From a virus (taxonomy: Duplodnaviria > Caudoviricetes): a DNA stretch of 64,000 nt. The stretch covers positions 32,001 through 96,000 of the IMG/VR virus record IMGVR_UViG_3300028591_000079; one strand, given 5' to 3'. Position 1 is the first letter of the stretch. Every line of letters starts with the position of its first letter. A program made the translations under genes and the position numbers. Below the pieces are notes generated by a model that was given only the letters and a program-made list of their open reading frames with translations, was not told the DNA's origin and did not search any database. Shown here piece after piece: positions 30,082 to 52,194 of this stretch.

Positions 30082-30087
30082 GAATAC

Positions 30088-33724: not shown

Positions 33725-34025
33725 TTCTTCACCTTTATTTTTCTTGTTTATTTACTTTTCTTTCCTGTCTTTCATTATTTCTTACGCTTCTGAGTGATTG
33801 GTGTTGGTTTTGTTTTTATAGGTGTCAGTCTATTTTTTGCCATGATTATACCTCCTTTATGACTTTAGAATTGTTCGATGATTGGTTGTAATGCTGTTGC
33901 TGTACTGTAATACTTTCTTTGACAATCTACAGCATCGTTATGGCTTGAGAAAACACCCAGAACCATACCGCTATTAGGGATAACTACACGATACATTTTA
34001 CACTCCTTTTTGTTTGTTCGTATCT

Positions 34026-34054
34026 ATTTTACATTAATTTTTAGGTTTTGTCAA
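34026..34054 (-). promoter_or_regulatory. sigma70 promoter
   Basis: TTGACA-17-TAAAAT. Confidence 0.75.
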
Positions 34055-34336
34055 TTAATTTTCTTTAATCTTTATCGCAACTACTGTATAAGAGTGGCCG
34101 CCATATTCATCTTCAGTAAGAACACTGCCCAAGTCTATATCCTCTAAGACCTTATTCTCTGCCTGGTTTTGGATAAATGTTATAAGCACAGAAGCAGTAT
34201 TATATGAATCACCCAACTGAGTATCATCATCAAAAGCCTCTACCTCATAACCCGGCATATTTTCTTTCACCGCGCTTTCAATACCCGCAGCAGATATATT
34301 CAAGTCTAATTCATTCAAAATGTCTTGCACTGTCAT
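34055..34336 (-). CDS. small acidic protein
   Basis: AAGGAG SD. Confidence 0.75.
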   Translation of the reverse strand: MTVQDILNELDLNISAAGIESAVKENMPGYEVEAFDDDTQLGDSYNTASVLITFIQNQAENKVLEDIDLGSVLTEDEYGGHSYTVVAIKIKEN

Positions 34337-34347
34337 GTTTCACTCCT

Positions 34348-34533
34348 TTATTCAAATACTACTTCTTCTGGTTTCATTCCCATGTGTTTTGCGACTCTTT
34401 GTCTGATGGTATCGATAATGTCTTCTTCGCTATCATACAACAAGAATCTTTCATCCAGGAACACCCACCCATTTATCAAAACTCTGTAATCATATTTACC
34501 AAGTTTCTGCAGCGTGATTATATCTCTGTCCAT
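34348..34533 (-). CDS. hypothetical protein
   Basis: AAGGAGG SD. Confidence 0.7.
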   Translation of the reverse strand: MDRDIITLQKLGKYDYRVLINGWVFLDERFLLYDSEEDIIDTIRQRVAKHMGMKPEEVVFE

Positions 34534-34550
34534 ATTATCCTCCTTTATTT

Positions 34551-34865
34551 TTATAAGCAGTCTGTTCCGTTCAGTTTCAAAGTATCAATGTCGTAGTAAT
34601 GATAATCGCCACAACAATCATCTTCACCTACTTCACAATTTACATACTTTTCGCCTTTATACCATTTAACACCATACGAATACTCTTTGTTCAGTTGTTT
34701 CATTACCTTCACAGCAGTATCGTAATCAGTATAAACCCCACAAGGACAACCCATATAATTTTCATCAGGCTGCCATTGTCTTACTACATATACCTTCTCA
34801 ACCGGAAAGCACATACCATCTGATTCTCTCTGTTCTACAATGTGTGTTTTTACTTGTTTTGTCAT
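34551..34865 (-). CDS. hypothetical protein; similar to C-half of 35633-36028
   Basis: LNKEY..DYHYYDI vs LNKMY..DLHYFEV. Confidence 0.7.
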   Translation of the reverse strand: MTKQVKTHIVEQRESDGMCFPVEKVYVVRQWQPDENYMGCPCGVYTDYDTAVKVMKQLNKEYSYGVKWYKGEKYVNCEVGEDDCCGDYHYYDIDTLKLNGTDCL

Positions 34866-34884
34866 TTTATACTCCTTTTGTTTT

Positions 34885-35136
34885 TTATTTTGTTTCTACT
34901 TTTTCCAGATATTTATAACCACCATTTTGACACTTATCCCATTCTTCATGTTCTTCAGTTGTCCAATCATAATCACTTCTGCAGGTATCTACAACATGGG
35001 TCTTTTCATCATTCTCTAATAAATCCGCTACTTGTTCCACACTCATATTCTCAATGTCTTTATCAGATTCAATGATTAATGTTTGACTCACATATACAGA
35101 TACCAATTCTCCGATTTCAATTTTGTGTTTTGCCAT
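34885..35136 (-). CDS. small acidic protein
   Basis: AAGGAGGT SD before ATG 35136. Confidence 0.7.
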   Translation of the reverse strand: MAKHKIEIGELVSVYVSQTLIIESDKDIENMSVEQVADLLENDEKTHVVDTCRSDYDWTTEEHEEWDKCQNGGYKYLEKVETK

Positions 35137-35299
35137 CTTTACCTCCTTTATTTTGTTTTGTTGCAAATGATCTACATGTTTCGATTATCTTATCTAAAGC
35201 CATTATAGTCATTATCGAATCGCCACCCGTTTTTTCTATAGTTTCTTCATAGATAGAAATAAGTAAGTTTGCCAATTCTTCCGCTGTCATTTTGCTCAT
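35117..35299 (-). CDS. hypothetical protein
   Basis: AAGGAGGT SD. Confidence 0.7.
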   Translation of the reverse strand: MSKMTAEELANLLISIYEETIEKTGGDSIMTIMALDKIIETCRSFATKQNKGGKDGKTQN

Positions 35300-35359
35300 T
35301 ATTTACCTCCTTTGTTGTTTTTGTTTTCTACATCCTTATTATCACCCAAGTTTAGAAAA

Positions 35360-35617
35360 CTAATCCTGAAAAACTCTCTTAATCGTTATTTCATATTCTT
35401 CAACATCTGCACCAATCAAAATCGCAATTGTCTTTTTGTTTGTGTATTTGTCTTTATTCAATGCAATTGAAAGCCTATCTTCTTCCAAAAAATTGCCCTC
35501 ATTTGTAGCTTCTTCAATAACATCATACACTCTTTCAGTGATTTTGTTTTCTTTGCCAAGACGTTCATTTGCGTATGCCATAGCTTCATCAAATTGCTCT
35601 TTCAAACTTTTGCTCAT
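35360..35617 (-). CDS. hypothetical protein
   Basis: AAGGAGGT SD. Confidence 0.75.
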   Translation of the reverse strand: MSKSLKEQFDEAMAYANERLGKENKITERVYDVIEEATNEGNFLEEDRLSIALNKDKYTNKKTIAILIGADVEEYEITIKRVFQD

Positions 35618-35632
35618 AATGACCTCCTTTAT

Positions 35633-36028
35633 TTATTTGGTTATATTCATAGAGACAACTTCAAAGTAATGTAAATCATTTGTATAGCATTCATCATAAT
35701 CTACTGATTCAAAGTCTCCTTCTTCACTAAAGATACAACTTTTACCATACATTTTATTCAACCCTCTGGCTTCTTCAAGTGCTCGTTCTCTATCGGCAAA
35801 TACATAGATAGTTTCGTTTTTCATCATATTATCTTCTTCGCCAATGATTTGTTTAGTTTCATTCACCAGATATATTTTGATTTGATCTATCCCGCGCGCC
35901 AAGTTATCATCTCCATCACCTTCATAAGTTTCCAGCAATTCAGAATCATATCCGGCTTTATCTAATAAGTTTTCAAGTGGTTCATATTCATTTGCTTCTA
36001 CACGAATATTATATACATTTTTTGCCAT
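35633..36028 (-). CDS. small acidic protein
   Basis: AAGGAG SD. Confidence 0.75.
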   Translation of the reverse strand: MAKNVYNIRVEANEYEPLENLLDKAGYDSELLETYEGDGDDNLARGIDQIKIYLVNETKQIIGEEDNMMKNETIYVFADRERALEEARGLNKMYGKSCIFSEEGDFESVDYDECYTNDLHYFEVVSMNITK

Positions 36029-36046
36029 AGTTCACTCCTTTAGTTT

Positions 36047-36307
36047 TTATAAGTTTGGAAAGATAATCAATACGTTCTGGTTCTTGTTCTCTGCCTTTAC
36101 TGCCGGGTCTTTATCGTATCCCCTGTAGTAATCATCCGCTGCCATATCTTTAGCGTTATCAACTTCAAACATTAACACATCACCATACGAATTACCTTCT
36201 TCATCTTGACTCATAATCACCGCAGCATCTCCACCTAATCGTTTCTTTGCTGCTTCTAATTCTTTTATCAAGTCATCTATTGTTTTTATTGTGCATACGT
36301 TTTTCAT
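36047..36307 (-). CDS. phage hypothetical protein (SQDEEGN motif)
   Basis: VIMSQDEEGNSY; AAGGAG SD. Confidence 0.75.
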   Translation of the reverse strand: MKNVCTIKTIDDLIKELEAAKKRLGGDAAVIMSQDEEGNSYGDVLMFEVDNAKDMAADDYYRGYDKDPAVKAENKNQNVLIIFPNL

Positions 36308-36318
36308 AGTTTACTCCT

Positions 36319-36654
36319 TTATTTTGTTTGTAATTTCTTTGCCAGTTGTTTTGCCAAGAGTTCAATGTTCCAGGATGGTTCTCTCATTTCAGATTCGCCA
36401 TAGTGTTTTCCAACCCAACAGCGGATAAAGTCTTCAATCTGGTCTGATAATGGCGCGTCTGATATGTTTGCTTCTACCATTACTACCTTGCCAAAACAAA
36501 ACACATCACCATCATATAAGGCCAAATATTTTTCTGCTTCTGCTTTGGATTTAAATTTCTTGGCTTTATTTCTATCATATGTAGGTTCTGTATCTGGTTC
36601 TTCTGTCAAATATCCCAAATACATATCATCTTCATAAACTTTTGCTAACTTCAT
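36319..36654 (-). CDS. hypothetical protein
   Basis: GGAGGT SD, ATGA overlap. Confidence 0.75.
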   Translation of the reverse strand: MKLAKVYEDDMYLGYLTEEPDTEPTYDRNKAKKFKSKAEAEKYLALYDGDVFCFGKVVMVEANISDAPLSDQIEDFIRCWVGKHYGESEMREPSWNIELLAKQLAKKLQTK

Positions 36655-36875
36655 GCTTCTACCTCCATGTTATAATATTCCCCAACCTCAAATTCAGTAT
36701 CAGGGTGTTCTCTTTTTAGTTTTATCATTACCTTCGCAGCAGATTCAAAGTTGGGATAATACAAAGCCATATCTACTGTTCTGGCAAGGTGATAATAATA
36801 GTCATCGGTATCATCTATATAAGTATAATCACCGTAATCTTTATCAAACACTTTTATTACGTAGCGCTTTTCCAT
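36651..36875 (-). CDS. hypothetical protein
   Basis: AAGGAGG SD. Confidence 0.75.
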   Translation of the reverse strand: MEKRYVIKVFDKDYGDYTYIDDTDDYYYHLARTVDMALYYPNFESAAKVMIKLKREHPDTEFEVGEYYNMEVEA

Positions 36876-36886
36876 ATTATCCTCCT

Positions 36887-37327
36887 TTAGTTTTTATTCA
36901 TTAGGCTATTCAAGTTTTCAATGTATTTGTTTGCTTCTTGGATTGTCTCAAATTTATAAGGCTTACCATCAGCATCACAAACCGTATCTTGCTTGAGTTG
37001 TTTTACCGTATATGTTCCATCCTGATTATAGGTGGGTTCATATTCCGGCAATTCATACCAGTCCCACACATAACCATCCGCGTCAAAGATGTCTAAGATT
37101 GTGCTGATGTCTGTTTTGGAAAGGTCAAGGCTATCAACATCAAATGTATCAAAGTCTATCCCCATTACATCACAATAAGTTTCAGGCGTTATAGTATCGT
37201 CTTTAATATATTGTTCGCACAGTTCTCTTAGTTGTGCCACAGTATAGATATTGGTTTCACTCAATGTATCTTTCCAAGTCTCGTCTTCACAGTCTTCATT
37301 TGGATAATACAATTTATATACTCGCAT
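36887..37327 (-). CDS. acidic protein sharing C-terminal module with 37638-38021
   Basis: FETIQEANKYIENLNSLMNKN. Confidence 0.75.
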   Translation of the reverse strand: MRVYKLYYPNEDCEDETWKDTLSETNIYTVAQLRELCEQYIKDDTITPETYCDVMGIDFDTFDVDSLDLSKTDISTILDIFDADGYVWDWYELPEYEPTYNQDGTYTVKQLKQDTVCDADGKPYKFETIQEANKYIENLNSLMNKN

Positions 37328-37338
37328 CTTATACTCCT

Positions 37339-37626
37339 TTATTTTTCATATAAGTCCATTACAGTATCCAAAGTATCAACAAACTCTCCAGGCAACGGTT
37401 TAATATTAGTGGTATCAAAACTAGCAAATGGTCTTACATGGTCTGGACAAAGTTTCTCAAAGCCCCTGAAGGAACAGTCAAACACACTCCAACTACCCCA
37501 ACAACCAGAACCTTTATATCCTTGTCCCCACGTTCTAATATATAAAATATTGTTAGAGTCTATTGCAAACTGGACACCATTACGCTGATACAATTTTTTA
37601 CAATACAGTTTAGGTTTCTTATTCAT
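37339..37626 (-). CDS. hypothetical protein
   Basis: AAGGAGG SD. Confidence 0.75.
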   Translation of the reverse strand: MNKKPKLYCKKLYQRNGVQFAIDSNNILYIRTWGQGYKGSGCWGSWSVFDCSFRGFEKLCPDHVRPFASFDTTNIKPLPGEFVDTLDTVMDLYEK

Positions 37627-37637
37627 TTCGGCCTCCT

Positions 37638-38021
37638 TTAGTTTTTGTTCATTAGATTTAACATATTGTCTATAAACCTATTTGCTTCTTCAAAGGTTTC
37701 AAAAGTATCTATAACCTTATTTCCATCTTCTATGTCTACCACATCATATTTGTTATTGTTATATGTTGCTCGGTATTTGACAAAGTTCCAGGTTATAAAG
37801 TTGATACTAAACCCATATTCTTCAGTCAAAACATTCATCAAAACTTCTTCTACATGTCCATCATCCATTTCACTTGTAGGTGTGTTCTCTTTATAGTCTT
37901 CCAAGGTTAGTTTAAAAGAGTGTAGTATAGTAGGTAATTCTTCGTCAAACTCCGGATAATCTTCTAAGTCTTCCAAATCCCAATCTATACTATCCACATC
38001 TACTAATACTGTTCTGCTCAT
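37638..38021 (-). CDS. acidic protein sharing C-terminal module with 36887-37327
   Basis: FETFEEANRFIDNMLNLMNKN; start moved to 38021. Confidence 0.7.
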   Translation of the reverse strand: MSRTVLVDVDSIDWDLEDLEDYPEFDEELPTILHSFKLTLEDYKENTPTSEMDDGHVEEVLMNVLTEEYGFSINFITWNFVKYRATYNNNKYDVVDIEDGNKVIDTFETFEEANRFIDNMLNLMNKN

Positions 38022-38022
38022 T

Positions 38023-38622
38023 TTATTCATCCTCATCTTCATCATCTCTAGGTGGGTCAACATCATAGCAAGAAAAAGTCTCACCATCTGAATAACCTTC
38101 CATATAGATTTCGTTTCCACCTTCTTCACAATCCCAATCAAACTGAACACCTAACTCAGCCATTTTATGTAAGACTGGTTCAGGTGGCGCCCAAGCAGTA
38201 TCAAATTGTAAATAAAAGGGTTCGTTGTTTTTTATTGCCTCATCTAAATTGTCCAAATTGCAATCGTCATGAGCCAAATCCCACTTAGTTCCCCAGTTAT
38301 CACAATCCCATTCATACCAATTACTAGGCTTTACCCCTGTTCTCTCAGCCTCTTTGTTCATCCATTCTTTAGCATATAAAAAGTCTATCACCCCATCACG
38401 AAAGAAATCATTATCCGGTTCTTTCCCCAATCTTTCTTTAGTTATTCCGGCTTCTTCCATTAGGTTTTCATCACTTTCGCTCATATTCAAGTCGTTATAG
38501 AGTTTCATATGTTCAGGCTGAGGTATAATGTTATCAAAGCAAAAGTTCCCATTCTTTACACATTTCTCTTTGAACACTTCTGGATTTGAGATTGTCATAT
38601 GATTTTCACACCAGTTTGGCAT
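38023..38622 (-). CDS. DUF1281/YubB ferredoxin-like domain protein
   Basis: MPNWCEN, WYEW..NWGTKW, FDTAWAPP. Confidence 0.85.
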   Translation of the reverse strand: MPNWCENHMTISNPEVFKEKCVKNGNFCFDNIIPQPEHMKLYNDLNMSESDENLMEEAGITKERLGKEPDNDFFRDGVIDFLYAKEWMNKEAERTGVKPSNWYEWDCDNWGTKWDLAHDDCNLDNLDEAIKNNEPFYLQFDTAWAPPEPVLHKMAELGVQFDWDCEEGGNEIYMEGYSDGETFSCYDVDPPRDDEDEDE

Positions 38623-38642
38623 ATTATCCTCCTTTGTTTATA

Positions 38643-39017
38643 TTATCGTTGTTCATTAGTTAAGAGTCCTAACAATACTTCCCCATTCTCTTCAACCAAT
38701 CTCGCAGCCGTCAATAAATCATCTGTCCCCCAAAAATCTATATGTAAGTCTTGTAAGTTTCTGGAAGCCACACAAGTAAAGAAGGCTACATCTGGATTAT
38801 TGTTTATTTTCTGCGCTACTTTGAATAACTTATATCTATCTTCTTTATCCAACTTAGCATCAAAACCAATAAACTCTGGATACATCTCCCTTGCTACTTT
38901 TGCTCCTTCACCCGTTAGCATTTTATCAAGTTTAGGATTATCAACTATACAACAAGGGATTTGAAAGTGTTCGTCTATATTGTAGTTCTTCAACAGTTCT
39001 TCTTTATTTGGTTTCAT
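38643..39017 (-). CDS. hypothetical protein
   Basis: AAGGAGTAGAA SD. Confidence 0.75.
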   Translation of the reverse strand: MKPNKEELLKNYNIDEHFQIPCCIVDNPKLDKMLTGEGAKVAREMYPEFIGFDAKLDKEDRYKLFKVAQKINNNPDVAFFTCVASRNLQDLHIDFWGTDDLLTAARLVEENGEVLLGLLTNEQR

Positions 39018-39588
39018 TTTCTACTCCTTTTGTTATAAAACCTTTGACTAATTTACGACCCCACAACTTAAATTCTACTCGCAAGTCTGTATCAACCTCT
39101 CGTAAAACTTTTTGTATCTTAGGTGTCATAGCATATTTTACAAGTTTCTCTAAGTCTGCTTCTATCTCTTCTTGTCTTCCAGCCATTGCACCATAAAGAC
39201 TAAATTCAAATGAGATAGTTATGACCTTTTTTCTTGTGTTTAAGTCTATCCCGCGCTGAATCAAAACTTCATTACTTCTGTTTTGTTTGTCGCGCTTAGT
39301 TAGATTATTTCCATACCAGCAAAAAGGCTCTAATACACCACGCAACTTATCACGAATCAAAGTATAATCACTCAAAGTCTTGTCGGTATCCATCATTTTC
39401 ATATCACTAACCTTGACCCTGAATATCTTATACTGACCACCCATATGACCTTTTCTACAAGCATCAATTAAAATACTCTGCGCTTCACTATAATCACAAG
39501 TTGCAGAACGATAATCCCACAATCTAAAACCTACATTATATACATTATCAAATCTGCCAACTAAATATATATAGTCAATATTATCCAT
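39004..39588 (-). CDS. hypothetical protein, possible paralog of 41797-42351
   Basis: YLV.R, ITISF, similar C-terminal beta pattern. Confidence 0.7.
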   Translation of the reverse strand: MDNIDYIYLVGRFDNVYNVGFRLWDYRSATCDYSEAQSILIDACRKGHMGGQYKIFRVKVSDMKMMDTDKTLSDYTLIRDKLRGVLEPFCWYGNNLTKRDKQNRSNEVLIQRGIDLNTRKKVITISFEFSLYGAMAGRQEEIEADLEKLVKYAMTPKIQKVLREVDTDLRVEFKLWGRKLVKGFITKGVENETK

Positions 39589-39589
39589 C

Positions 39590-39934
39590 TTATTCTCCTA
39601 TTGTTTTTACATAATTATTGAAACCACCACACAACGAAATCATATTCTTAAACTCTTCATCACCATACACACTTATCATTCCGCTTGATGTATTGTAATG
39701 AATTAGTTGTATATGTTCGTTCTTTTTCACCCAGTCCAATAACTTAGACCATACATTACAGCTCGGCATATCAAACTCTTCTTTATGCCAATCTATAACA
39801 CCCTCACCAATTACGGCTTCAAGTATCTGTATTCCTCCCCACGCCAAATACTTTCCGCCCGCCGCATCGCAAAACACAGCACTAACTGGCACATCTTTTT
39901 CTTTCAATATGTTTATAATTTCTTCTCTGGTCAT
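39590..39934 (-). CDS. hypothetical protein
   Basis: AAGGAGGT SD. Confidence 0.75.
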   Translation of the reverse strand: MTREEIINILKEKDVPVSAVFCDAAGGKYLAWGGIQILEAVIGEGVIDWHKEEFDMPSCNVWSKLLDWVKKNEHIQLIHYNTSSGMISVYGDEEFKNMISLCGGFNNYVKTIGE

Positions 39935-39947
39935 AATTCAACCTCCT

Positions 39948-41096
39948 TTATTTGTTATTTACCACTTCTAAAAACTTATGCACATCACCTATCATTTCAT
40001 AAGTCATAGCAGTTTCACCCCACATAAAGACATTATAGGTTTCCATATCACTATTTACACACCACACAATACAATGGTCTAATCCTTCAAATTCAATCAT
40101 TGGAATATTGTCGTGGTAAAACCGGATAGTCAAAACCGTTAGTCCATCGGTAGGCAAAAGGTTTATAATGTTTCTATGGTTTTCCTTTGGTCTCCCCATA
40201 TACTTATCCAATAACAACTTCGCAGCAATCCCAAAGTCCTCATTCTCTTTATCCCCCGCAACAATCTCAAATAATTCTTTTAAGGTCATTGTCGGTTTGC
40301 AGACTTCTTTGATTTCCACATCGTCATTTCTCAAAAACCTAGCAGCCATCAAAGCATCTATAAAGTCTAATTCTGGATAGTCTTTCAAATATAATTCACA
40401 CCCAGTCAAAGCAGTTGTAAGTCTAAACGCTTCTCTTGCTGCCGCCTCACAGAGTTCCACCTTGGTTTTTACTTCTTTCGGGTCAAACATTTTTACTGTA
40501 TCAAACCCTAAATATGTTCTTTGCCGTTTGTCATTTTCAAGACCTTCGCCAGATGGTAAAAAGTTTATTGCTCTTCCTTCCATATAGTCAGTCCAAATAT
40601 CCTTAGCACAACACAACAAACCAAACAGATTGAATACATTATCTACATTCAACCCACTAGTCGCTTGTTTAAATGTTTTGTCTATGATTTCTTTTTCGTG
40701 TGGTAATAAGTCTCTGGGTGTTCCTAATTTACAATGTGTCCCATACCAACTCAGCGCTCCACGAATTTTTGAATCCATAAGTGCAAAATCATTCATATTC
40801 TTATTTACATTTACTACATCATTTACAAAGTATTCACCATCAGCAATAGATTCAAACCTACTACTTTCTTTACCGCTTTGATAATTCTTGCCTACAACAC
40901 ATACCTTGATATTACCTTTTGCAAATGCTTCTTGAAACGCTATAATGCTTTCTTTGCAGAAACAATACCAAGCACCACCCAACAACAACTGGGTCATCAA
41001 TTCTTTCAAGTCTGTATAAAAATATGCTTTGCCCTGATAGGTGCCATGATTTTCTTTAAACCACAACAGAGCCATTTTTTGTTCTTTCTTTGCCAT
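39948..41096 (-). CDS. hypothetical protein (382 aa)
   Basis: AAGGAGTAGAA SD; no recognised motif. Confidence 0.8.
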   Translation of the reverse strand: MAKKEQKMALLWFKENHGTYQGKAYFYTDLKELMTQLLLGGAWYCFCKESIIAFQEAFAKGNIKVCVVGKNYQSGKESSRFESIADGEYFVNDVVNVNKNMNDFALMDSKIRGALSWYGTHCKLGTPRDLLPHEKEIIDKTFKQATSGLNVDNVFNLFGLLCCAKDIWTDYMEGRAINFLPSGEGLENDKRQRTYLGFDTVKMFDPKEVKTKVELCEAAAREAFRLTTALTGCELYLKDYPELDFIDALMAARFLRNDDVEIKEVCKPTMTLKELFEIVAGDKENEDFGIAAKLLLDKYMGRPKENHRNIINLLPTDGLTVLTIRFYHDNIPMIEFEGLDHCIVWCVNSDMETYNVFMWGETAMTYEMIGDVHKFLEVVNNK

Positions 41097-41124
41097 AATT
41101 CTACTCCTTTTAGTTCTAGTTGAT

Positions 41125-41157
41125 AAAGCCCCAAGGTTTGTATTCTCTCAGGGCTTT
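41125..41157. other. intergenic hairpin, twin of 43883-43917
   Basis: AAAGCCC..ATTCTCTCAGGGCTTT. Confidence 0.6.
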
Positions 41158-41164
41158 TGTTTTC

Positions 41165-41626
41165 TTATTTCATTGCTTCTAAGATACAGTAGATAAACGA
41201 TACAATATGCTTACACCCATACCCCATATTCTCTGCGTTCTTTTCAGGTCTATCTGTTTTCTTTTTATAGTTAGTCAGCACCTTATCGGTATATAAAGCA
41301 CAACCACTATGCAGATTACCTTTCAAAGCACCGCCCAAAGTATAGTCAGTGCAATCACAATCTACCTTTATCTCTTTATCTAACAGGTCTTTTGGTCTTG
41401 GAAACTTACCCGCAACCAAATCGTCAGTAGTTAAACTCCCAGGCTCAACACCATAGAAAGCAACCTCAACCTTATACAGTTTATTGTTGCTCCCTTTTGC
41501 CAATGCCTTGAACGATAACTTCTTTTGTGATAAATCGTATCTGGGGTTCTCAAACTTATCAAACTCTATATCACTATTATCACGACCCATTGCTTTACTG
41601 TTATCTAAAAATTCTTTCGTTGTCAT
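41165..41626 (-). CDS. SWIM-type zinc finger protein
   Basis: VDCDCTDY ... GCKH. Confidence 0.7.
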   Translation of the reverse strand: MTTKEFLDNSKAMGRDNSDIEFDKFENPRYDLSQKKLSFKALAKGSNNKLYKVEVAFYGVEPGSLTTDDLVAGKFPRPKDLLDKEIKVDCDCTDYTLGGALKGNLHSGCALYTDKVLTNYKKKTDRPEKNAENMGYGCKHIVSFIYCILEAMK

Positions 41627-41796
41627 ACTTCACTCCTTTATTCTACTATAAATTCTATTTGGTTTCCATTCACTTTATCAAACACATCATATTCTGCTTG
41701 ATTATAAAGGTCTTGGAATTCTTTTAGTGTGTATGTTTTTGCTCCGCCCATACCACTTGCCCACCATACTCTTACCTTTATCATTTTATACTCCTT

Positions 41797-42351: not shown

Positions 42352-42370
42352 GGTTATACCTCCTTTATTA

Positions 42371-42889: not shown

Positions 42890-43016
42890 GACTTACTCCT
42901 TTGGTTTTTTATTGTTGATTCTGTCTTTTTTCCACAACTCGCAAAGACAGAAAGAAGCGAGCCAACAGCAGGACTCTAAGTTAGGAGTAGAATAGAAAAC
43001 CTGCCTGTGGAAACCA

Positions 43017-43862: not shown

Positions 43863-43882
43863 ATTTTACTCCTATTAGTTAT

Positions 43883-43917
43883 AAAGTCCTGAAAGGTGTT
43901 GATTCTCTCAGGACTTT
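43883..43917. other. intergenic hairpin, twin of 41125-41157
   Basis: AAAGTCCTGA..ATTCTCTCAGGACTTT. Confidence 0.65.
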
Positions 43918-43927
43918 GTTGGTTTAT

Positions 43928-45229
43928 TTAGAACTCCAACCGCATGGTCTTTGCTCTTTTTACACCGACAGGATTTTGAAAGTTATCGTTGCCAGTGATT
44001 CCCCATATTACAGGACAATAATCAAATTTCAAATTATCTATACAGTCATATCCATCAGTCATACAAATAAACACATCATATTTCTTTTTGTTTTCTTTTA
44101 TCCAATCGAAACTAGATGCGATAGTTGTTCCACCAAAGGATGCCAACTTATAGTCTTTGATTTTATCCTGCGTTGGTTTTGTATAATTCACAAGGGTATC
44201 CTCATGAACTTGTGTTGAAAAGCACCAGATGTCAATGTCAAATGATTTAAAACTGTGCATAATCTTTGCTATATGCGCCAAGAATTCATGCACTTGTTCA
44301 TCACCAACCGACCCTGATGTATCAATCGCAATACCTAACTTGATATGCGTATCTGTGCTAGTTCCTGGAAGTATATTACCCATACCCCAACTTCTACGAG
44401 ATGGACGCTTCCAAGAAAAGTCAGATTTGATAAACGCTTTCAGATAGTTAGATAAGAAACCACGCCAATCAAATGGAGGTTCCTGAAACAAGAAGTCAAA
44501 TGCTCGTTCTAAGAAACTATCAACCTTACCTGCATCTTGACCACCCATTTGTTTTTGGACTGCTTGGACTTGGGCTTTGATTCTGCCTGTGTCTGTTTCA
44601 TCCATACTATCTTGCCCGCCATGGTCATCAAACTGTTTTTGTCCTTTCGCTTGTTTTTCTAACCACTTACCAACAGCACCCATCATTTCTTGTTCTACTT
44701 GTTCAGGTGTTTTGCCATCGTGGTCTTTCTTGAAGTCCTCTAACAGTTTTTCATATATCTGCTCACAAGTCATATTTCTATACTTTTCATCATATAAACC
44801 AAATTGCCCTTTCGGATTTTCTGGTTTGATTAACTTGTCGCTATGATACATTTCACCAATCGGTTTAGGCTTACCATATCTATCACTGTTATTTACAAGG
44901 TCTGAATTGATAGAGTAGTCAGTAGCATAATTCCATAACTGAGGATTCCTGCTACCCCGTCTTTCCATAGTCAGATTCAACAAATGCCCTACTTCATGAC
45001 AGATTATAAACAAGATATTATCAACTGACATTTCGTGCATATCCTCGTGTTCTACCATATACTTCCAGTTGAAATAAATACCTTTACCATCTGTCCAGGC
45101 TATTGAATCGTGGTCAGACTCTACAAATTCAACCCCGACCCTTGCAGATATTGCCGCTAAGAAACTATGCTTTATCCACAGTTTTGTATTTACGGCTTCT
45201 TGCATTTCGTCTTTATTTACTGTTATCAT
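43928..45229 (-). CDS. HExxH metallopeptidase-like + VWA domain protein (DUF2201-like)
   Basis: AWTDGK, HEVGH, WNYATD..IN, WKRPSRR, IDTSGS (MIDAS), GGTT, MTDGY. Confidence 0.9.
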   Translation of the reverse strand: MITVNKDEMQEAVNTKLWIKHSFLAAISARVGVEFVESDHDSIAWTDGKGIYFNWKYMVEHEDMHEMSVDNILFIICHEVGHLLNLTMERRGSRNPQLWNYATDYSINSDLVNNSDRYGKPKPIGEMYHSDKLIKPENPKGQFGLYDEKYRNMTCEQIYEKLLEDFKKDHDGKTPEQVEQEMMGAVGKWLEKQAKGQKQFDDHGGQDSMDETDTGRIKAQVQAVQKQMGGQDAGKVDSFLERAFDFLFQEPPFDWRGFLSNYLKAFIKSDFSWKRPSRRSWGMGNILPGTSTDTHIKLGIAIDTSGSVGDEQVHEFLAHIAKIMHSFKSFDIDIWCFSTQVHEDTLVNYTKPTQDKIKDYKLASFGGTTIASSFDWIKENKKKYDVFICMTDGYDCIDNLKFDYCPVIWGITGNDNFQNPVGVKRAKTMRLEF

Positions 45230-45363
45230 ACTTACCTCCTTTTAGTTTAGGATTACACAAATGACGGCTGCGAGTATCAACAAAATAATCAACATACACA
45301 GCATCATACCATTTACACTATCTTTTACACTATCAGTTATTGGATGCATATTTACCCCCTTTA

Positions 45364-45537
45364 TTATTCTTTATAAAATACATGCATCCAAGATTTTTTA
45401 TAATCACTGCTACATGTAAAGTGTGTATCATCTCTACTACAATGTTCCCTGGCTTCCTCTAAGGTCAAGCCAGTCATTATAGTTGTTTTTCTTTTATTCG
45501 GGTCACCCCATACTTTTACAATTTTATAAGTAGCCAT
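45364..45537 (-). CDS. small phage protein
   Basis: TGLTLEEAREHC; AAGGAGGT SD. Confidence 0.7.
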   Translation of the reverse strand: MATYKIVKVWGDPNKRKTTIMTGLTLEEAREHCSRDDTHFTCSSDYKKSWMHVFYKE

Positions 45538-45551
45538 ATTTACCTCCTTTA

Positions 45552-45914
45552 TCATTCTTGTTCATTATCATCTACACCAACACTTATCATACCATTACCC
45601 AAGTCTTTTACATTCAACTTTTCAGATAATTCCTCAGCCTCCTGTTCTCTCATTTGTTTTTCCATTTCTTTTTCGTGGTATTCTTTCAACAAGTCCGCCA
45701 CATTTTCATCAAACCATTTAGATTCGTGCAGGTGATATTCATAGTTGTCCTCATTGTTTAGTAAGGATTCCATTTTATCACCAACCTCAACTTTACACAA
45801 TAAATCATTAGCCATATTTAAACCTATCTGTTCGTGGTCATCATTCTCTTGCCACACCACCATCAAGGCTTTCATAATTGCTTTGATTTCTTTATCTGTA
45901 AATAGTCTTGCCAT
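45552..45914 (-). CDS. hypothetical acidic protein
   Basis: AAGGAG SD. Confidence 0.75.
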   Translation of the reverse strand: MARLFTDKEIKAIMKALMVVWQENDDHEQIGLNMANDLLCKVEVGDKMESLLNNEDNYEYHLHESKWFDENVADLLKEYHEKEMEKQMREQEAEELSEKLNVKDLGNGMISVGVDDNEQE

Positions 45915-45973
45915 AACTTACTCCTTTATAAATTGTTGGGCAGTTTTATATCTTACCCAGGATAGTTATGTTA

Positions 45974-47206
45974 TTAGAAGTTAGTTTTAGATGTGCAGAA
46001 TTTTGCGACTGCTTGAATATCTTTATGACTTACATACGACAACAGTTTATTATTCTGTGTGATATGTTTAGTCAAAATCGCTTGCCAATCCGCTCGTTTC
46101 AACTTCTGGCAGGCTTCAAACAGATTATGCACAGCCTCAACCAATGCCTTACCCTCTTTTGATTCTTTATTTGGGCGACCATTTTCATCTTTTTCTGGTT
46201 CGTCCATCTGATTCAAAGTGGCAATACAACCTGTCAATGTTCCGAAAAATCCGTTTATATCACCATCATCACGAAAACCTTTACCTTTGAATAAGATTTC
46301 CGCTGGGTCTTGATATTTTTCAGAGTTTTTCAGATATTCCAACAACATATTTGATACTGCTCCACCAAAATACATACTTGCAAAATGGAACACTTCATCA
46401 TAACTTGCATCCGTATTCATACTATATAACTTGATGAATCGTGACCAAGAACGAGGTGTGCCAAATGTATATGAATTGTTGTTGTAGTTATCAGTATCAA
46501 ACAACTTATCAGGATTACGCTTTACAAACGCAGCCACCATTTGTTTAATCTTTTCTGGTGTGATTCCTGCGATAAAAGGTTTTTCCTGTGCTGGTGTTGT
46601 ATCCAAGCCTAAGACATAATCAAACCACACATCCGCATTGGTTTTTACGAATATATGCCCGAATCTATCTTTGACTGGCGCTTGGATTTCAGTTGAGTAA
46701 GCATTGACCCCTGACTGATTACCTGCCGCAATGATACGATAACCATCTGGCAAGAAGTAATCACCAATTCGTCTTTCTTGAACCAACTGTTGAACAGCAT
46801 TTTGCATAGCCGCAGGTGCATTATTCATTTCATCAAAGTATAACAACCCACGACCATTTGGATTTGTTGGTAAGCATTTAGGAATCGCCCAAGTTGTCTT
46901 AGTCATTTCCTTACCATACTCATTTACTTTTTCAGGCATAGGAATACCAATCAAGTCAGCAGGTTCCATAGATGATAAAGGATAGTAGAAGTATTCAAAC
47001 TCTTTATCCTCTTGTTTCATCTTGCTTACAAACTGTTCTACCGATTGAGTTTTGCCAATACCAGGGTCACCCCAAACAAACAAGTTCAAGTTAGCCCGAT
47101 ACATACAATCAATCAATCTTGGTAATTTGTTTAAGACTATCCCCGAATCCATCAGTTCTTTGATTTCACGAGATACATTTACTTCATTGTTTTGATTTTT
47201 AGCCAT
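45974..47206 (-). CDS. MoxR-like AAA+ ATPase
   Basis: Walker A GDPGIGKT, DLIGIP, Walker B LYFDEMN, IIAAGN, DRF, TPRSW. Confidence 0.92.
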   Translation of the reverse strand: MAKNQNNEVNVSREIKELMDSGIVLNKLPRLIDCMYRANLNLFVWGDPGIGKTQSVEQFVSKMKQEDKEFEYFYYPLSSMEPADLIGIPMPEKVNEYGKEMTKTTWAIPKCLPTNPNGRGLLYFDEMNNAPAAMQNAVQQLVQERRIGDYFLPDGYRIIAAGNQSGVNAYSTEIQAPVKDRFGHIFVKTNADVWFDYVLGLDTTPAQEKPFIAGITPEKIKQMVAAFVKRNPDKLFDTDNYNNNSYTFGTPRSWSRFIKLYSMNTDASYDEVFHFASMYFGGAVSNMLLEYLKNSEKYQDPAEILFKGKGFRDDGDINGFFGTLTGCIATLNQMDEPEKDENGRPNKESKEGKALVEAVHNLFEACQKLKRADWQAILTKHITQNNKLLSYVSHKDIQAVAKFCTSKTNF

Positions 47207-47274
47207 ATTCTACTCCTTTTTTTAGTTTTTTGGTGTTGATTTTGTTAGGTTTTATTTATTGACTACCCTAACTT

Positions 47275-47823
47275 TTAGTCATCGGCTCTGAAACAGTAAT
47301 CGTGACTTGCCAATCCTGCTTCATAAGCCCATCTTGTTGAGGTATTACTGTAAATTGCTCCACATATATACCCCCCTAACTTTATATTGGTGACGGTTGA
47401 ATAGGTTTTTACTCCCTCAACTTCAACCCCATCAATATTCAGTTTTACATATTTAGGACAACTTGGACTATACCGCATCCATTTTCCACCCAAGTCCTCA
47501 ACACTTACATCATCATAACCACTCACCATTTTGTTATAGATGTAGTTTTGAACCTCTTGGAATGTCCGTCCTAAATATTTTTCACAAACCAAATCAGCCC
47601 ATCCGTCTTTGCGACTTTCTATTTCAATTTCTGCTCCCCAATGGTCTTTTATATTAAACTTTGTCTTGCATCCACTAATAGTAAAGTCACCAGTATCAGG
47701 ATTATAACTTTCAATGGTTCGTTTCAAGTAGTTTCGTTTGTTCTTGATGTCATATACCCTAGTCAAAGGTAAATGCTTGTCAAAATAATACTCAACCACT
47801 TCTTTTATTGTGATGTCGTTCAT
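47275..47823 (-). CDS. hypothetical protein
   Basis: AAGGAGGT SD. Confidence 0.75.
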   Translation of the reverse strand: MNDITIKEVVEYYFDKHLPLTRVYDIKNKRNYLKRTIESYNPDTGDFTISGCKTKFNIKDHWGAEIEIESRKDGWADLVCEKYLGRTFQEVQNYIYNKMVSGYDDVSVEDLGGKWMRYSPSCPKYVKLNIDGVEVEGVKTYSTVTNIKLGGYICGAIYSNTSTRWAYEAGLASHDYCFRADD

Positions 47824-48003
47824 TTTACACCTCCTTTATTTCTTTTGTTGCTAAGAATAAACAAACACTAGCAATAATACAGTGTCCGATATTTGCATTG
47901 TTAGGTATTGATACAAACAAAAACGCAGTCATTACAATTAGCAAGAATAACAACCACACATTTGATACCATCTTTTTAGTGTCTTTCATACTTACCTCCT
48001 TTA

Positions 48004-48609
48004 TTAGTATCTATTGTTATCTTTATAGTCCTCAACACCATACTTTTCTTTCATTTGCTCTTTCCACTCGTTTATTTCTTTTTGTGTTGATAGACTAGTG
48101 ATTTCATCAACAGGTTCATCATTGTAGTTATCATAGACATACAGGCGTTCAATACTTCCGTTCCAAGCGTCACTCAAATTACTTGCATATCTACTCAAAT
48201 CTACTTTCAATTCCTTGCTGATACCTACAAAACCACAAGTGCCGCTATCCCATCTACATCTTGTATCGTCACTCTTATTGAAAGCAAACGACACCATACC
48301 ATGCACATAAGCACCTAAGGCATACGCTTCATATTTGTCTTTTCCATAGGTTTCGTCAAGGTATTTTTGAAATGATTCTATGTCTTGTTCCACATTTCCA
48401 GTTTCAGGCTCCCAACTTTCATCAGTAGCCAACCTTTCAAACCCCTCACGATTTTTACCTATCCAGGCTTTGTTGTTCGCTTTAAAGTCCTCAACCACAA
48501 ATTCAGGTTCGCTTTCATCATACTCACAATAGCCTACATATCTATCTTGCTCGGTTGTTTCTATTACTTCAACCTTGCCACTTTCTAACAGTTTCTTTTC
48601 TACCGTCAT
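48004..48609 (-). CDS. hypothetical acidic phage protein
   Basis: AYVHG, CRWDSGTCGFV; AAGGAG SD. Confidence 0.75.
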   Translation of the reverse strand: MTVEKKLLESGKVEVIETTEQDRYVGYCEYDESEPEFVVEDFKANNKAWIGKNREGFERLATDESWEPETGNVEQDIESFQKYLDETYGKDKYEAYALGAYVHGMVSFAFNKSDDTRCRWDSGTCGFVGISKELKVDLSRYASNLSDAWNGSIERLYVYDNYNDEPVDEITSLSTQKEINEWKEQMKEKYGVEDYKDNNRY

Positions 48610-48738
48610 ATCTTTACTCCTTTATTTTTAGATGTTCTTGTTCAATTTCGTGTCTCATTTGTCTAAGGTTTTCTAAATATGCCCTAAACGATTCTACCTT
48701 ATTCACGATTTTCCACATTAGCGCCGCTCCTACCTTAT

Positions 48739-48996
48739 TTACAGTTCATAATTCCAACGGTTCTTGTCTATTGCTTTTTCTAAGTCTAACATCGCACAAA
48801 AACCGCTCACATCTGCCAAAACGCCGTTCAATATTCGTTCTTGTTGTCTAATCGTTATTCCACTATCTACACAATATTCATCAAACGCCGCTAGTATGCA
48901 CAAATTCTGCTCATACATCGCTCGTCTATAAACCTTATCATACTGATTCGCGTTCCGTCTTGCTATACTTTTTACTAATTTATTCAAGTTTGTCAT
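48739..48996 (-). CDS. hypothetical protein
   Basis: AAGGAGTAGAA SD. Confidence 0.75.
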   Translation of the reverse strand: MTNLNKLVKSIARRNANQYDKVYRRAMYEQNLCILAAFDEYCVDSGITIRQQERILNGVLADVSGFCAMLDLEKAIDKNRWNYEL

Positions 48997-49027
48997 TTTT
49001 CTACTCCTTTATGTTTTTTGTTGTTCC

Positions 49028-49161
49028 ACTAGCGCCGCTCATAGCCCTAGTCTTTTAGTATATACTTGGACTAGCACCGCTTATAGCACCAACCATAGTA
49101 TATACTACCCACTCGCACCGCTAATAGACCATAATAACCCTACTAGCGCCGCAAATAGACC
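49028..49161. repeat. four ~20-bp direct repeats ACTAGCRCCGCNNATAG
   Basis: Copies at 49028, 49070, 49111, 49142. Confidence 0.8.
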
Positions 49162-49313
49162 TACATACCAAATATTAACCCCATAGACCACTTTACACAT
49201 ACCGCAATAAGACAACTACAACCTAACACATTGAAAAAATAATCTAGTGCCTTGTTGATTGTGTCTATTGGATTTTTCTTGTAGTTTAATCTATCCAAAA
49301 ATTTGTTATACAT
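49161..49313 (-). CDS. 50-aa protein with hydrophobic C-terminus (not in ORF track)
   Basis: AAGGAGTAGAA SD; MYNKFLDRL...LIAVCVKWSMGLIFGM. Confidence 0.6.
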   Translation of the reverse strand: MYNKFLDRLNYKKNPIDTINKALDYFFNVLGCSCLIAVCVKWSMGLIFGM

Positions 49314-49475
49314 TTTATTCTACTCCTTTCTAAACCAACCCATACTATCTTTCTATCAACGAAAAATAGCAGGCAATAACTAACCGATACAATATAACCT
49401 ATACCAATTCGTTATTATCTGCTATCTACTTGAATCTATATTGGTCTTGGAATCACTCGCCCCTTGACATAACAC

Positions 49476-49503
49476 AATATAACACAATCAAAAACAAAAG
49501 CAA
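49476..49503 (-). promoter_or_regulatory. promoter for central module
   Basis: TTGCTT-16-TATATT with TG; duplicated unit at 49645-49693 (shared CAAGAAAAATTAAGTATATACTTT). Confidence 0.6.
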
Positions 49504-49920
49504 GAAAAATTAAGTATATACTTTTGACTTGCCTTGACTGGAATATAAAAACTTGACAAAAACAAAAACAAGTCAAGCCCCCGCCCCCCTGTCAAGTCGC
49601 AACCGATAAAATAAAACGAATCACCCGCCCGCTTTACATAGTCAATTAAAACACAAAACAAAAAAAACGCAAGAAAAATTAAGTATATACTTTTTAATCG
49701 CCTTTATATTATACTATTAAAGAAAAATTTTAAACTATAATAAACGCAATTTAAACGGGCTTTTAAAGGGCTTGTTTTTTTATAACTTTACACTATACCA
49801 AAAACAAAAAACACGCTTTTAAACGCAAAAAAACACCTATTAAAATAGTATATACTAAAAAAACGCCTTTAAGGGCTTATACTGGAAACCCCCACCAGTT
49901 AACAGTGCAAAAGATGTAGT

Positions 49921-49996
49921 TAGTCCTTTTGAGTCTCTGAAGTCCTTTTGAGTTCATGCAGTCTTTTGTGGTCTCTGGGGCTGGATCCTTTGAGTC
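49921..49996. repeat. helically phased AGTC box array
   Basis: AGTC at 49922, 49932, 49941, 49960, 49993; variants at 49951, 49970. Confidence 0.7.
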
Positions 49997-50105
49997 TTTA
50001 TTTGGCCAATTATAGGATTTTTGATTGGTAAGTTGTGGGATTATGTTTTATTGATTTTACTGATTAATTATAGATTTTTCTTTAAGTGGGTGTTATAATT
50101 AATGT

Positions 50106-50133
50106 TTGAGTTTAGAATTAAAAGCGATATAGT
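50106..50133 (+). promoter_or_regulatory. promoter heading right orphan block
   Basis: TTGAGT-TTAGAATTAAAAGCGA-TATAGT. Confidence 0.65.
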
Positions 50134-50158
50134 ATAACAAACGAGGAGTATAGTCATT

Positions 50159-50419
50159 ATGAGTAGAAGAAAAGAATTTTTATTATGGGGTGTAAAAAAG
50201 TCTAGGAATGGTATATATTGGAGTGATGGGTTAGGATTATCTTTTATTGATGGTGGTTTGATGACGGAATATGATGGTAAGTATGATGGATCAGGGAAAG
50301 ACATTGGTTGTTGCTTAGTAGAGATGGGGTATTGGTTAGGTGGTAGGACAAAGGTTGATATAAATGTAGCTGGTAAAAAGGAGTTATTGTTTTATTTATT
50401 GAAGAAAGCAAAGGTATAG
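50159..50419 (+). CDS. orphan, tail LLFYLLKKAKV
   Basis: GAGGAG SD. Confidence 0.7.
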   Translation: MSRRKEFLLWGVKKSRNGIYWSDGLGLSFIDGGLMTEYDGKYDGSGKDIGCCLVEMGYWLGGRTKVDINVAGKKELLFYLLKKAKV

Positions 50420-50422
50420 TAT

Positions 50423-50722
50423 ATGAGAAGGGTATTAGTAAGATATTATGGTTGTGTTTTAGAGGGTGGTAAGAAGAAGTATTTTATTTATAGTAATGAC
50501 GAGAGTAAGACTGGGAGGATTTACATATATGTTGGTGGTTATATTGGAATGGGAGACAATGGGATAAGGTTTGGCAGTGGTTATAGTTATGTATTAGGGG
50601 GAGTGGAGAAAAAAGATGGGTGGTTATATGTTGTTTTATTTGGGAGTGGTAAGGGTGGTAAGTATAGTATAGCCAACATAATAGAGAGTGATAAGTATAA
50701 ATTGACTGCTTTGTTAGGGTAA
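50423..50722 (+). CDS. orphan, tail LTALLG
   Basis: Tail motif. Confidence 0.7.
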   Translation: MRRVLVRYYGCVLEGGKKKYFIYSNDESKTGRIYIYVGGYIGMGDNGIRFGSGYSYVLGGVEKKDGWLYVVLFGSGKGGKYSIANIIESDKYKLTALLG

Positions 50723-50726
50723 TAAG

Positions 50727-51050
50727 ATGAGGGATTATGACACTTTGAATCTTTTTTGGGAATATGATGCGATACAGGACTGGGGTAAAGGCGGTTGTTG
50801 GTATCATTTAATCAAGGGAACAAAGAAGCAAGGTATATGGTATGAATGTGATAGTTGGATATTATGGAAAGACGGGAGAGGATATATAGGTTATTGTTTT
50901 AGAAATGAACATAAAAGGGCCAGCAAAACAAATAGAGTAGTATGTGAGATGAAGAGTGGAATAATTGGTGGATACTTAGTTGATAATGGGGACTTTTGTG
51001 ATGGTGGTTATGGCAAGAAAGAATATATAGATTGGTTGTTGGGGGGATAA
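50727..51050 (+). CDS. orphan, tail YIDWLLGG
   Basis: Tail motif. Confidence 0.7.
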   Translation: MRDYDTLNLFWEYDAIQDWGKGGCWYHLIKGTKKQGIWYECDSWILWKDGRGYIGYCFRNEHKRASKTNRVVCEMKSGIIGGYLVDNGDFCDGGYGKKEYIDWLLGG

Positions 51051-51054
51051 TGAG

Positions 51055-51426
51055 ATGATGATGAGGTGTTTGATTAGGTATATTGGGTATTTTGATGATC
51101 ACGACAGGCACAGGCATTATATTTGTAAAAGGATTAATATTTATAGGCATTTATTTGGGTATGGATGTTTAGTTGATAATGATCTTATAAGTTTTGGTGC
51201 TAATGGTGAATGGATATATGATGATTTAATAAGTAACAAGGATTTTGAGCGTGGATGTCCGACAGGGAGAAAGAATGAAATAATTAATAAGGTAGATGGA
51301 TGGGTGTGTGTATGTTATAATATTGAAGATGAGGGCGGCTGCAATGTTTCAACTGGGGAAGTAAGTTATTTTAAGTCTGATATTTTTGACAAAGAAGAGG
51401 ATATTTTAGAATATTTATTGGCTTGA
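51055..51426 (+). CDS. orphan, tail ILEYLLA
   Basis: Tail motif. Confidence 0.7.
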   Translation: MMMRCLIRYIGYFDDHDRHRHYICKRINIYRHLFGYGCLVDNDLISFGANGEWIYDDLISNKDFERGCPTGRKNEIINKVDGWVCVCYNIEDEGGCNVSTGEVSYFKSDIFDKEEDILEYLLA

Positions 51427-51450
51427 AGAAGTAATTAAATATGGTAAAAT
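51423..51450 (+). promoter_or_regulatory. phage promoter (AATTAAA-spacer class)
   Basis: TTGAAG-AAGTAATTAAATATGG-TAAAAT; ATG 7 nt downstream, possibly leaderless mRNA. Confidence 0.7.
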
Positions 51451-51456
51451 AGTAAT

Positions 51457-52194
51457 ATGGTGATAAATGAAGAAAAACATATTGTAAAGCATAATGAAGA
51501 CTTAGGATGGCTATTTGGTTTACCTGAGGGTGTTTTGTATGTATATTATGGTGGTTTGATATTTTTGAATTACGGTTGGTTTCACGAGATGGATAATTGT
51601 GGCAGGCCTGTAATAAACAACATGACGATTAGTGAAGTTGTAAGATTAATAAAAAGTGATACGGGATTAGTAGAGAGGATAGAATGTTTGAGTAAGGGCG
51701 TTATAAGAGACTATTATGACGCAAATGAGATGTTATCAAAGCACAAGAAATTATTAAGCAAGTACGGAATAAAAGAATTAGAGCCTGTTGTTGATGGACA
51801 TTCTTTTGTTATTAAGTTGTGGTTTGAAGATTTTGAAAACGACAGTATGTTTAGGTTTTATTTTAGGACCAGTGGGAGTTATATGGATGGAAGGGTATTA
51901 TTAAAGCTTTTGGGTAGGATAGTTGACAAAGGTGAAGACGGGGTAAAAGAATACAATAAGTGGTTAGAATTTGCACGGTTATTGAAGAAATTTGATATTG
52001 AGATTGGGTGGTTTAATTATTTTAGGTTAGAAGGTGATAATATAGTATTTAAGGGAAAAGACTGGAGATTGGATTGGTGTACTGATTTTGAAAAGAAGCT
52101 GATAAGTATATGTGAGAAGGATAAGGGTAATAATTATAGGATGAGGTGTGGTAGTATTGAAGAATTTGATGCATTATTGGAGTTATTAACGTGA
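51457..52194 (+). CDS. 245-aa protein, probable paralog of 26372-27100
   Basis: Ends EEFDALLELLT. Confidence 0.75.
   Translation: MVINEEKHIVKHNEDLGWLFGLPEGVLYVYYGGLIFLNYGWFHEMDNCGRPVINNMTISEVVRLIKSDTGLVERIECLSKGVIRDYYDANEMLSKHKKLLSKYGIKELEPVVDGHSFVIKLWFEDFENDSMFRFYFRTSGSYMDGRVLLKLLGRIVDKGEDGVKEYNKWLEFARLLKKFDIEIGWFNYFRLEGDNIVFKGKDWRLDWCTDFEKKLISICEKDKGNNYRMRCGSIEEFDALLELLT

Follow-up and report, generated by a model that had tools for sequence, protein, structure and literature searches.

Loss of several type II restriction target words from a putative leading end of an uncultured rumen jumbo phage genome

One segment of an uncultured phage genome, reaching about 12-17 kb inward from a junction at 49904/49905, has been purged of several type II recognition words at synonymous positions. 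The window analysed is a 64,000-nt stretch of DNA, bases 32001-96000 of IMG/VR record IMGVR_UViG_3300028591_000079 (here G000; 231,064 bp, 32% GC), and positions are those of the window unless another genome or contig is named. G000 is a jumbo myovirus-like phage of the ruminant gut (rumen), and its host is probably a low-GC Gram-positive bacterium. The purged words are GATC, GTAC, GTWAC, AGCT, TCGA, GGCC/GGNCC, ACGT and in part CATG, all of which are at or near expectation elsewhere in G000. The segment, here called the island, is probably the leading end of linear virion DNA, avoiding restriction in the manner of T5 and T7. An earlier note on this DNA had proposed that restriction targets are depleted in this segment because it enters the cell first and is exposed first, and the present analysis supports that reading: the missing words are short palindromes of type II kind and were lost synonymously, the position of the void is conserved in diverged relatives while its word set varies by lineage, and its proximal border meets a conserved base at which contigs of relatives end, the distal border being staggered by motif.

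By exact counting, GATC is absent from 35885 to 49983 (14,099 bp, the island core) and GTAC from 33903 to 51761 (17.9 kb), with a GTWAC-free stretch at 32758-51232 (flanking sites 32757 and 51233) overlapping the latter; no strand is assigned to these stretches. The bordering sites are 35884 and 49984 for GATC (gap of 14,100 bp) and 33902 and 51762 for GTAC (17,860 bp). The absences that the earlier note had read by eye, 35888-49983 and 33906-51761, therefore hold, and exact counting turned up no missed sites at normal density. Its counts for the surroundings were close as well: 17 GATC sites lie between 29.5 and 35.9 kb (at least 15 had been given), and the first 10 kb hold 17 GTAC sites (about 15 had been given). 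The whole of G000 contains 553 GATC, 334 GTAC and 303 GTWAC sites, and the second-longest gaps are 1,963 bp for GATC and 4,927 bp for GTAC. Poisson probabilities of the longest gaps are 2.5e-16 (GATC) and 7e-13 (GTAC), or 1e-13 and 2e-10 when corrected for the number of gaps. A single shared location holds the longest gaps in G000 of GATC, GTAC, GTWAC, AGCT, TCGA, GGCC and ACGT.

The tens of sites that base composition had been said to predict for the void amount to 42-43 GATC and 29-42 GTAC. Four further words are depleted 5-10-fold, their few sites lying inside the GATC-free stretch: AGCT (3 observed vs. 31 expected), TCGA (3 vs. ~20), GGCC (2 vs. 13) and ACGT (4 vs. 19.5). CATG is halved (18 vs. 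~36), and neither GTWAC (~17-20 expected) nor GGNCC (~8-9 expected) occurs at all. Other palindromes had been described as present in the gap, which is correct for CCGG (8), GCGC (15) and GAATTC (2), found at normal level together with GANTC and TGCA, but TCGA and CATG proved to be depleted themselves. Palindromes of 6 bp were kept out of depletion testing because their expected counts are too small.

To separate word loss from protein content, synonymous codons were shuffled with the island proteins and the island codon usage kept fixed. The shuffle predicts 33.9±4.3 GATC in the island coding sequence, where a single site is observed, at the edge. GTAC (29.5 expected) and GTWAC (12.4) are absent, and the remaining words fall well below expectation (AGCT, 34.4 expected vs. 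3 observed; TCGA, 39.4 vs. 3; ACGT, 28 vs. 4; CATG, 40 vs. 16), while CCGG, GCGC, GANTC and TGCA agree with it. When G000 was divided into 14-kb blocks, GATC matched the synonymous expectation in all but the island block (36 vs. 35.9; 33 vs. 30.4), such that genome-wide avoidance of GATC was not found in G000 by this block test and window-wise counts deviate in the island only. Because the shuffle predicts about 34 GATC and 30 GTAC and the other blocks are normal, the words must have been removed through codon choice in one segment only. TTAA and CTAG stand at about 0.45-0.5 of the shuffle expectation in every 14-kb block, and this halving is therefore a genome-wide trait separate from the island.

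Avoidance for reasons other than host restriction could be imagined, through the phage's own nucleases, host methylation that disturbs early transcription, or a local bias of mutation or repair. The genome-wide halving of TTAA and CTAG speaks for such a process, yet we consider it very improbable as the source of the island. At least seven different palindromes have been lost, all of them classic type II targets, and the set of words changes between close lineages. The loss is spread evenly across coding sequence and not over promoters only, and CCGG, GCGC, GANTC and TGCA would not have escaped a mutational bias.

Related genomes carry the void at the homologous place. G001, an IMG/VR contig of 202,747 bp with 35% GC, was found via its DnaE-type polymerase (80% amino acid identity); an IMG/VR search with the ATPase of the island alone gave no relative. 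The VWA protein of the island matches many ruminant-gut contigs at 74-81% amino acid identity and a more distant lineage at 48%. Gene order is conserved in the relatives, and at least nine related contigs have the void, with partly different word sets. In L032 and L050-L052 the missing or depleted words are GATC, GTAC, GTWAC, AGCT, TCGA, GGCC and ACGT, and in L025 they are GATC, GTAC, GTWAC, AGCT, GGCC and ACGT plus CATG (0 vs. 24). L027 lacks GATC, GTAC, GGCC and GCGC (0 in 31 kb) and retains GTWAC, TCGA and ACGT in the first 7 kb, and in L029 GATC is absent across the whole 21-kb locus. G001 avoids GATC genome-wide, with no site in its 202,747 bp, and has its longest GTAC, GTWAC, AGCT, GGCC and GGNCC gaps on the homologous operon. 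Such lineage-specific word sets are what would be expected from differing host restriction repertoires.

The earlier note had itself named recent import from a GATC-free donor as an alternative, in which the island would be a module acquired from a palindrome-avoiding, G001-like phage and not yet drifted back. GATC-free relatives do exist, the GC content of the island is 35.6% against about 31% in the flank, and short patches of 90-96% identity between lineages indicate recombination. However, the G000 island is only about 77% identical in nucleotides to L025, L027 and L032 over the alignable 55-70% and holds 716 one-step GATC precursors, so that neutral change should have given rise to about 27 new GATC sites in each lineage; none arose, which rules out a recent import that has not decayed. 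The void is moreover syntenic in all relatives despite ~23% nucleotide divergence and differing word sets, and amino acid identity to G001 is lower for island genes (49-64%) than for core genes (55-82%). A sharp proximal border with distal borders that differ by motif does not suit an imported block either, and the G001 island has extra voids (GTAC, AGCT, GGCC) that are absent from the rest of G001. The import account is thus already largely refuted, and we give it scarcely any probability. Comparison of the sequences shows instead that the purge is upheld by continuing, lineage-specific selection in every relative examined.

The proximal border of the void lies at a conserved junction (49898..49909), a putative virion DNA end produced by terminase cutting, which reads GTTAACA/GTGCA on the plus strand and TTGCAC/TGTTAAC in the orientation of the operon described below, the slash marking 49904/49905. 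Just outside it, at 49905..50000, is an array of AGTCY (RGACT) repeats that includes three copies of a 19-nt tandem repeat (49922-49978), and at this array the strand composition flips. Four contigs from three lineages start at the exact base homologous to the G000 junction, after GCAC. L033 and L036 have an identical first base (TGTTAATGGGGGTGGG) and are probably one sample processed by two assembly pipelines; L038, of another lineage and another study, starts at the homologous TGTTAACGGGGGTGGG; and L057, of a third lineage and yet another study, has an Illumina adapter tail fused directly to TGTTAACTGG at the contig start. Adapter sequence is also present at a contig end away from the junction (L035) and by itself is weak proof for that reason, so that the weight lies in the same base recurring across lineages. 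Four more contigs break 17-444 bp from the junction. Contigs that read through have the form (RGACT repeats)...TTGCAC/TGTTAAY, and the junction is recognisable also in L025 and the distant L029. In a pattern scan for the junction, IMG/VR yielded no match and JGI metagenomes yielded one contig that reads through it. From homology to the contig ends of relatives there is good, though indirect, evidence that 49904/49905 is a terminase cut and the physical end of the virion DNA.

Restriction sites resume directly beyond this base. The last sites outside the junction in G000 are at 81 bp for GATC, 101 bp for GGCC and 52 bp for CATG, and the first GATC inside it is at 14,019 bp; the equivalent GATC positions are -76 and +11,154 in L027 and -79 and +14.1 to +14.4 kb in L050-L052. 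Voids begin 50-320 bp from the junction base overall (52-320 bp in G000, L027, L032 and L050-L052). The end of the GATC void, which had been placed at a 49.9-kb boundary, lies about 80 bp from the conserved junction. The GTAC, ACGT and TCGA voids seem to continue past the junction on its right-hand side, as far as 51.2-55.8 kb, but this apparent continuation is within chance when the spacing of sites and the extreme local GC skew are taken into account. Relatives carry sites 50-320 bp outside the junction.

On the distal side the voids end at distances that depend on the motif. GGCC and ACGT return at about 12.3 kb in G000 and about 11.9-12.6 kb in L050-L052, GATC at about 14.0 kb and about 14.1-14.4 kb, AGCT at 14.3 and 15.9 kb, GTAC at 16.0 and 15.0-15.3 kb, and GTWAC at 17.1 and 12.9-13.1 kb, respectively. 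These motif-specific borders suggest graded exposure and not one sharp stop. They can also be claimed by an explanation in which the segment is specially vulnerable without any order of entry, the rest of the DNA being shielded by covalent modification, by a protein that is injected with the DNA and coats it, or by a compartment, any of which would leave out the terminal ~14 kb. In a variant, the terminal segment is exposed for longer, for example as the transcribed end, such that restriction selects on it without polar or two-step entry. All of the evidence for selection fits this explanation equally well, and borders that differ by motif are unlike a single injection stop. We nevertheless regard it as unlikely, as no mechanism of such region-specific protection is known, and the void, as polar entry predicts, starts at the putative DNA end and runs the same way as a single operon. 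DNA methyltransferase domains (Dam, N6_N4, C5, T4-Dam) were not detected in G000, so self-methylation does not account for the unpurged rest of the genome, and phage-encoded methylation was rejected as an explanation.

Every island gene is on the minus strand, and the open reading frames (ORFs) form a single dense operon of about 35 tightly packed genes (33500..49313, minus strand). It is read from the junction inward, between a 1.1-kb non-coding region at 49.0-50.15 kb and about 33.5 kb. Nearly all of its genes are preceded by AAAGGAG, a ribosome-binding site typical of low-GC Gram-positive hosts. On the simplest model, which is that established for T5-like phages, the terminal segment would enter the cell first, from the junction end, and the operon would be switched on immediately, with host RNA polymerase as the likely enzyme. 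Restriction would then be neutralised broadly by at least one operon product before the remaining DNA arrives, leaving the later-entering DNA free to keep its restriction sites. A phage RNA polymerase domain had no Pfam match in G000, which is weak evidence that the host polymerase reads the operon, since RNA polymerases of jumbo phages are very divergent. The genome-wide avoidance of GATC in G001 suggests that some enzymes escape such protection in some hosts.

About 30 of the proteins of the operon are orphans without a known family, and many are very acidic. The gene at 48004..48609 (minus strand) encodes an acidic RNase_T-like protein (201 aa, net charge -20), the homologues of which in relatives match Pfam RNase_T (DEDD exonuclease). 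A MoxR-like AAA+ ATPase was assigned by family match (AAA_5) at 45974..47206 (minus strand), and at 43928..45229 (minus strand) is its partner, a DUF2201 protein in which a VWA domain accompanies a putative metallopeptidase domain with conserved HExxH. The most acidic protein (38023..38622, minus strand; 199 aa, net charge -34) is of Api92/DUF1281 type by family match and structure model, this being the sole match of the model; the literature on DUF1281, when searched, offered nothing helpful. Megablast of the island against INPHARED phages gave no match. The ATPase and DUF2201-VWA pair (43928-47206) is widespread in large phages; with tblastn the VWA protein was found in 770 phage records (PA5oct-like phages and large Escherichia, Vibrio and Campylobacter phages), where it is variously annotated as HNH endonuclease, hydrolase or hypothetical.

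It is possible, though rather doubtful, that the clade uses T5-like staged entry and that its terminal operon encodes an undescribed type of broad type II restriction inhibitor. Candidates would be the MoxR ATPase/VWA-metallopeptidase pair, the early DEDD exonuclease and the very acidic ORFans. Were this true, genomes that avoid GATC throughout (G001, perhaps L029) and those that avoid it at one end only (G000, L025, L027, L032, L050-52) would amount to a natural screen, by presence and absence, for whatever factor neutralises GATC-specific restriction.

A nearly ORF-free stretch of 1.5 kb at 28602..30112 (no strand assigned), 19.8-21.3 kb inside the junction, contains the densest RGACT/AGTCY array of G000, with 22 repeats per 400 bp against a mean of 1.1. 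An ORF-poor, RGACT-rich stretch is found in the L027 lineage also, at +19.9 to +21.3 kb. A repeat-rich non-coding region is therefore present at the inner side of the terminal segment, and 28602..30112 may be the inner boundary of that segment. In G000, and likewise in the L027 lineage, two RGACT arrays enclose about 20.5 kb, and G001 has one array. A second TTGCAC cut motif at the inner array, as a long terminal repeat might carry it, is seen in L027 only and not in G000, and G001 is without a second array. No contig ends were seen at the counterpart of this inner region among the contigs of relatives. Genes for GIY-YIG and HNH homing endonucleases are located near or just past the inner edge (L043, 17367-19308; L025, 20093-20590; L029, 20713-21210) and probably cause some of the contig breaks of relatives nearby.

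Several points weigh against the island being a leading end. Entry from the junction end is a polarity that we solely infer, and the placement of a DNA end at 49904/49905 in G000 rests on homology to contig ends in relatives. The G000 contig and several others read through the junction, and therefore concatemers, circularised DNA or a terminal repeat must exist. The voids stop 3-8 kb before the repeat-rich non-coding region, the natural counterpart of the injection-stop region of T5. Sub-segments of the L027 void avoid different words, which also fits mosaic recombination between lineages. The earlier note had expected an anti-restriction factor to be encoded here, but known anti-restriction families (Ocr, ArdA, KlcA/ArdB) were not matched among 30 island proteins (Pfam, E<=0.05), and to our knowledge hardly any inhibitors that act broadly on type II enzymes have been described.

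Other features of the locus concern control of the operon. Its non-coding control region (49028..49856, no strand assigned) contains all five exact AGTATATACT palindromes of G000, within repeats of about 76 nt, as well as four ACTAGCRCCGC..ATAG repeats that are conserved in G001. Near the distal edge of the void is a strong hairpin resembling an intrinsic terminator (33451..33479, minus strand; 13 pairs and a T run), and a near-consensus sigma-70-like promoter is located at 34026-34054 (minus strand); in the promoter scan, sigma-70 hits were no more frequent than in shuffled sequence. An Rfam scan returned tRNAs only. These form a cluster at 58763-60347, with six tRNAs by Rfam and four by ARAGORN (Ala, Asn, Thr, Leu).

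GC skew is extreme at 20000-29000 and 50100-53500, down to -0.65 and up to +0.68, and the coding strand of many small genes that flank the terminal segment is nearly free of C; skew within the island is milder (-0.2 to -0.38). In G001 the skew reaches +0.69 just outside the junction, at 170-171 kb. Six consecutive genes of 151-158 aa, which are probably paralogues of one family, are found there on a strongly G-skewed strand (G001 169,488-172,295, in L019). The far side of the terminal segment in G001 has non-coding DNA (152,874-153,418, in L018) with two GC-rich alternating purine-pyrimidine tracts (CGCGCGGGCGGGCGCACACGCACGCGC... and an inverted counterpart) around a pure A/T core of about 100 bp. 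A GCGGGCGGGC motif also recurs in control regions of the other lineages. At 66.2 kb, G001 carries a partial C5 DNA methyltransferase. In 31 kb of Logan contig SRR31077519_22932 (L027+L043), GCGC is absent on both sides of the junction and GATC is unusually dense just past the void (51 sites in 13.5 kb).

With this island, the rule known from T5 and T7, that only first-entering DNA must lack sites, would come to include a jumbo-phage clade that is uncultured and unrelated to them. At least seven frequent words of 4-5 bp vanish together here, which makes the signal much cleaner. Sequence alone could then place the leading end of a phage and estimate how much DNA is exposed before protection, and the word sets of the voids would reveal the restriction specificities of the host of each lineage. 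How later-entering T5 DNA is protected from type II enzymes is unsolved, and the natural variants of this clade would allow a comparative search for the factor.

Phages T5 and BF23 are sensitive to restriction-modification of types I, II and III only when sites are placed in the first-step-transfer (FST) region, and what protects them has yet to be identified (PMC10644984; PMC8594841). The FST region has a repeat-rich non-coding border (PMC10644984). As in the FST DNA of these Demerecviridae, G000 has a site-free terminal segment (~6-9% of the genome) with sites present elsewhere, early genes mostly of unknown function, and, at the inner side, an extensive non-coding region rich in repeats. 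Unlike T5, G000 is an unrelated jumbo phage, myovirus-like and ~231 kb in size, with a polymerase of DnaE type and ribosome-binding sites of Gram-positive style. It avoids palindromes of 4-5 bp, at least seven at once, with a far stronger statistical signature, and its distal border is staggered by motif. A long terminal repeat and a two-step pause are known from T5. As PHROG and Pfam scans of the island proteins found no match to the T5 pre-early proteins (A1, A2, Dmp), the resemblance is functional and not evolutionary.

In T7-like Autographiviridae, motifs in the first-injected leading region alone decide restriction sensitivity, and this region is variable and carries anti-defence genes (PMC12455610). 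Transcription inward from the putative entering end is shared by G000 and T7-like phages (Ocr at the entering end; Murciavirus and Mme2I). The T7-like case differs in that it concerns one type I motif in podoviruses of about 40 kb with transcription-coupled entry, and no Ocr- or ArdA-like protein was found in the G000 island.

Avoidance of restriction sites over whole genomes is exemplified by the GATC-free Staphylococcus phage K, and surveys of such avoidance in phages were reportedly made by Sharp in 1986 and Rusinov in 2018 (cf. PMC8594841, ref. 64). In these genomes, as in G000, short palindromic type II targets have been removed by selection, but in G000 this applies to one terminal segment only. 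The leading regions of conjugative plasmids, which enter as single-stranded DNA and carry anti-defence genes, are similar in being first-entering DNA specialised to survive host defences, and we know of no comparable multi-palindrome void in them. A literature search turned up no account of a multi-palindrome void of this kind from a jumbo phage. The principle is already known; new would be its appearance in an unrelated jumbo-phage clade, and the case stands out for its strong signal, which could serve as a marker read from sequence alone.

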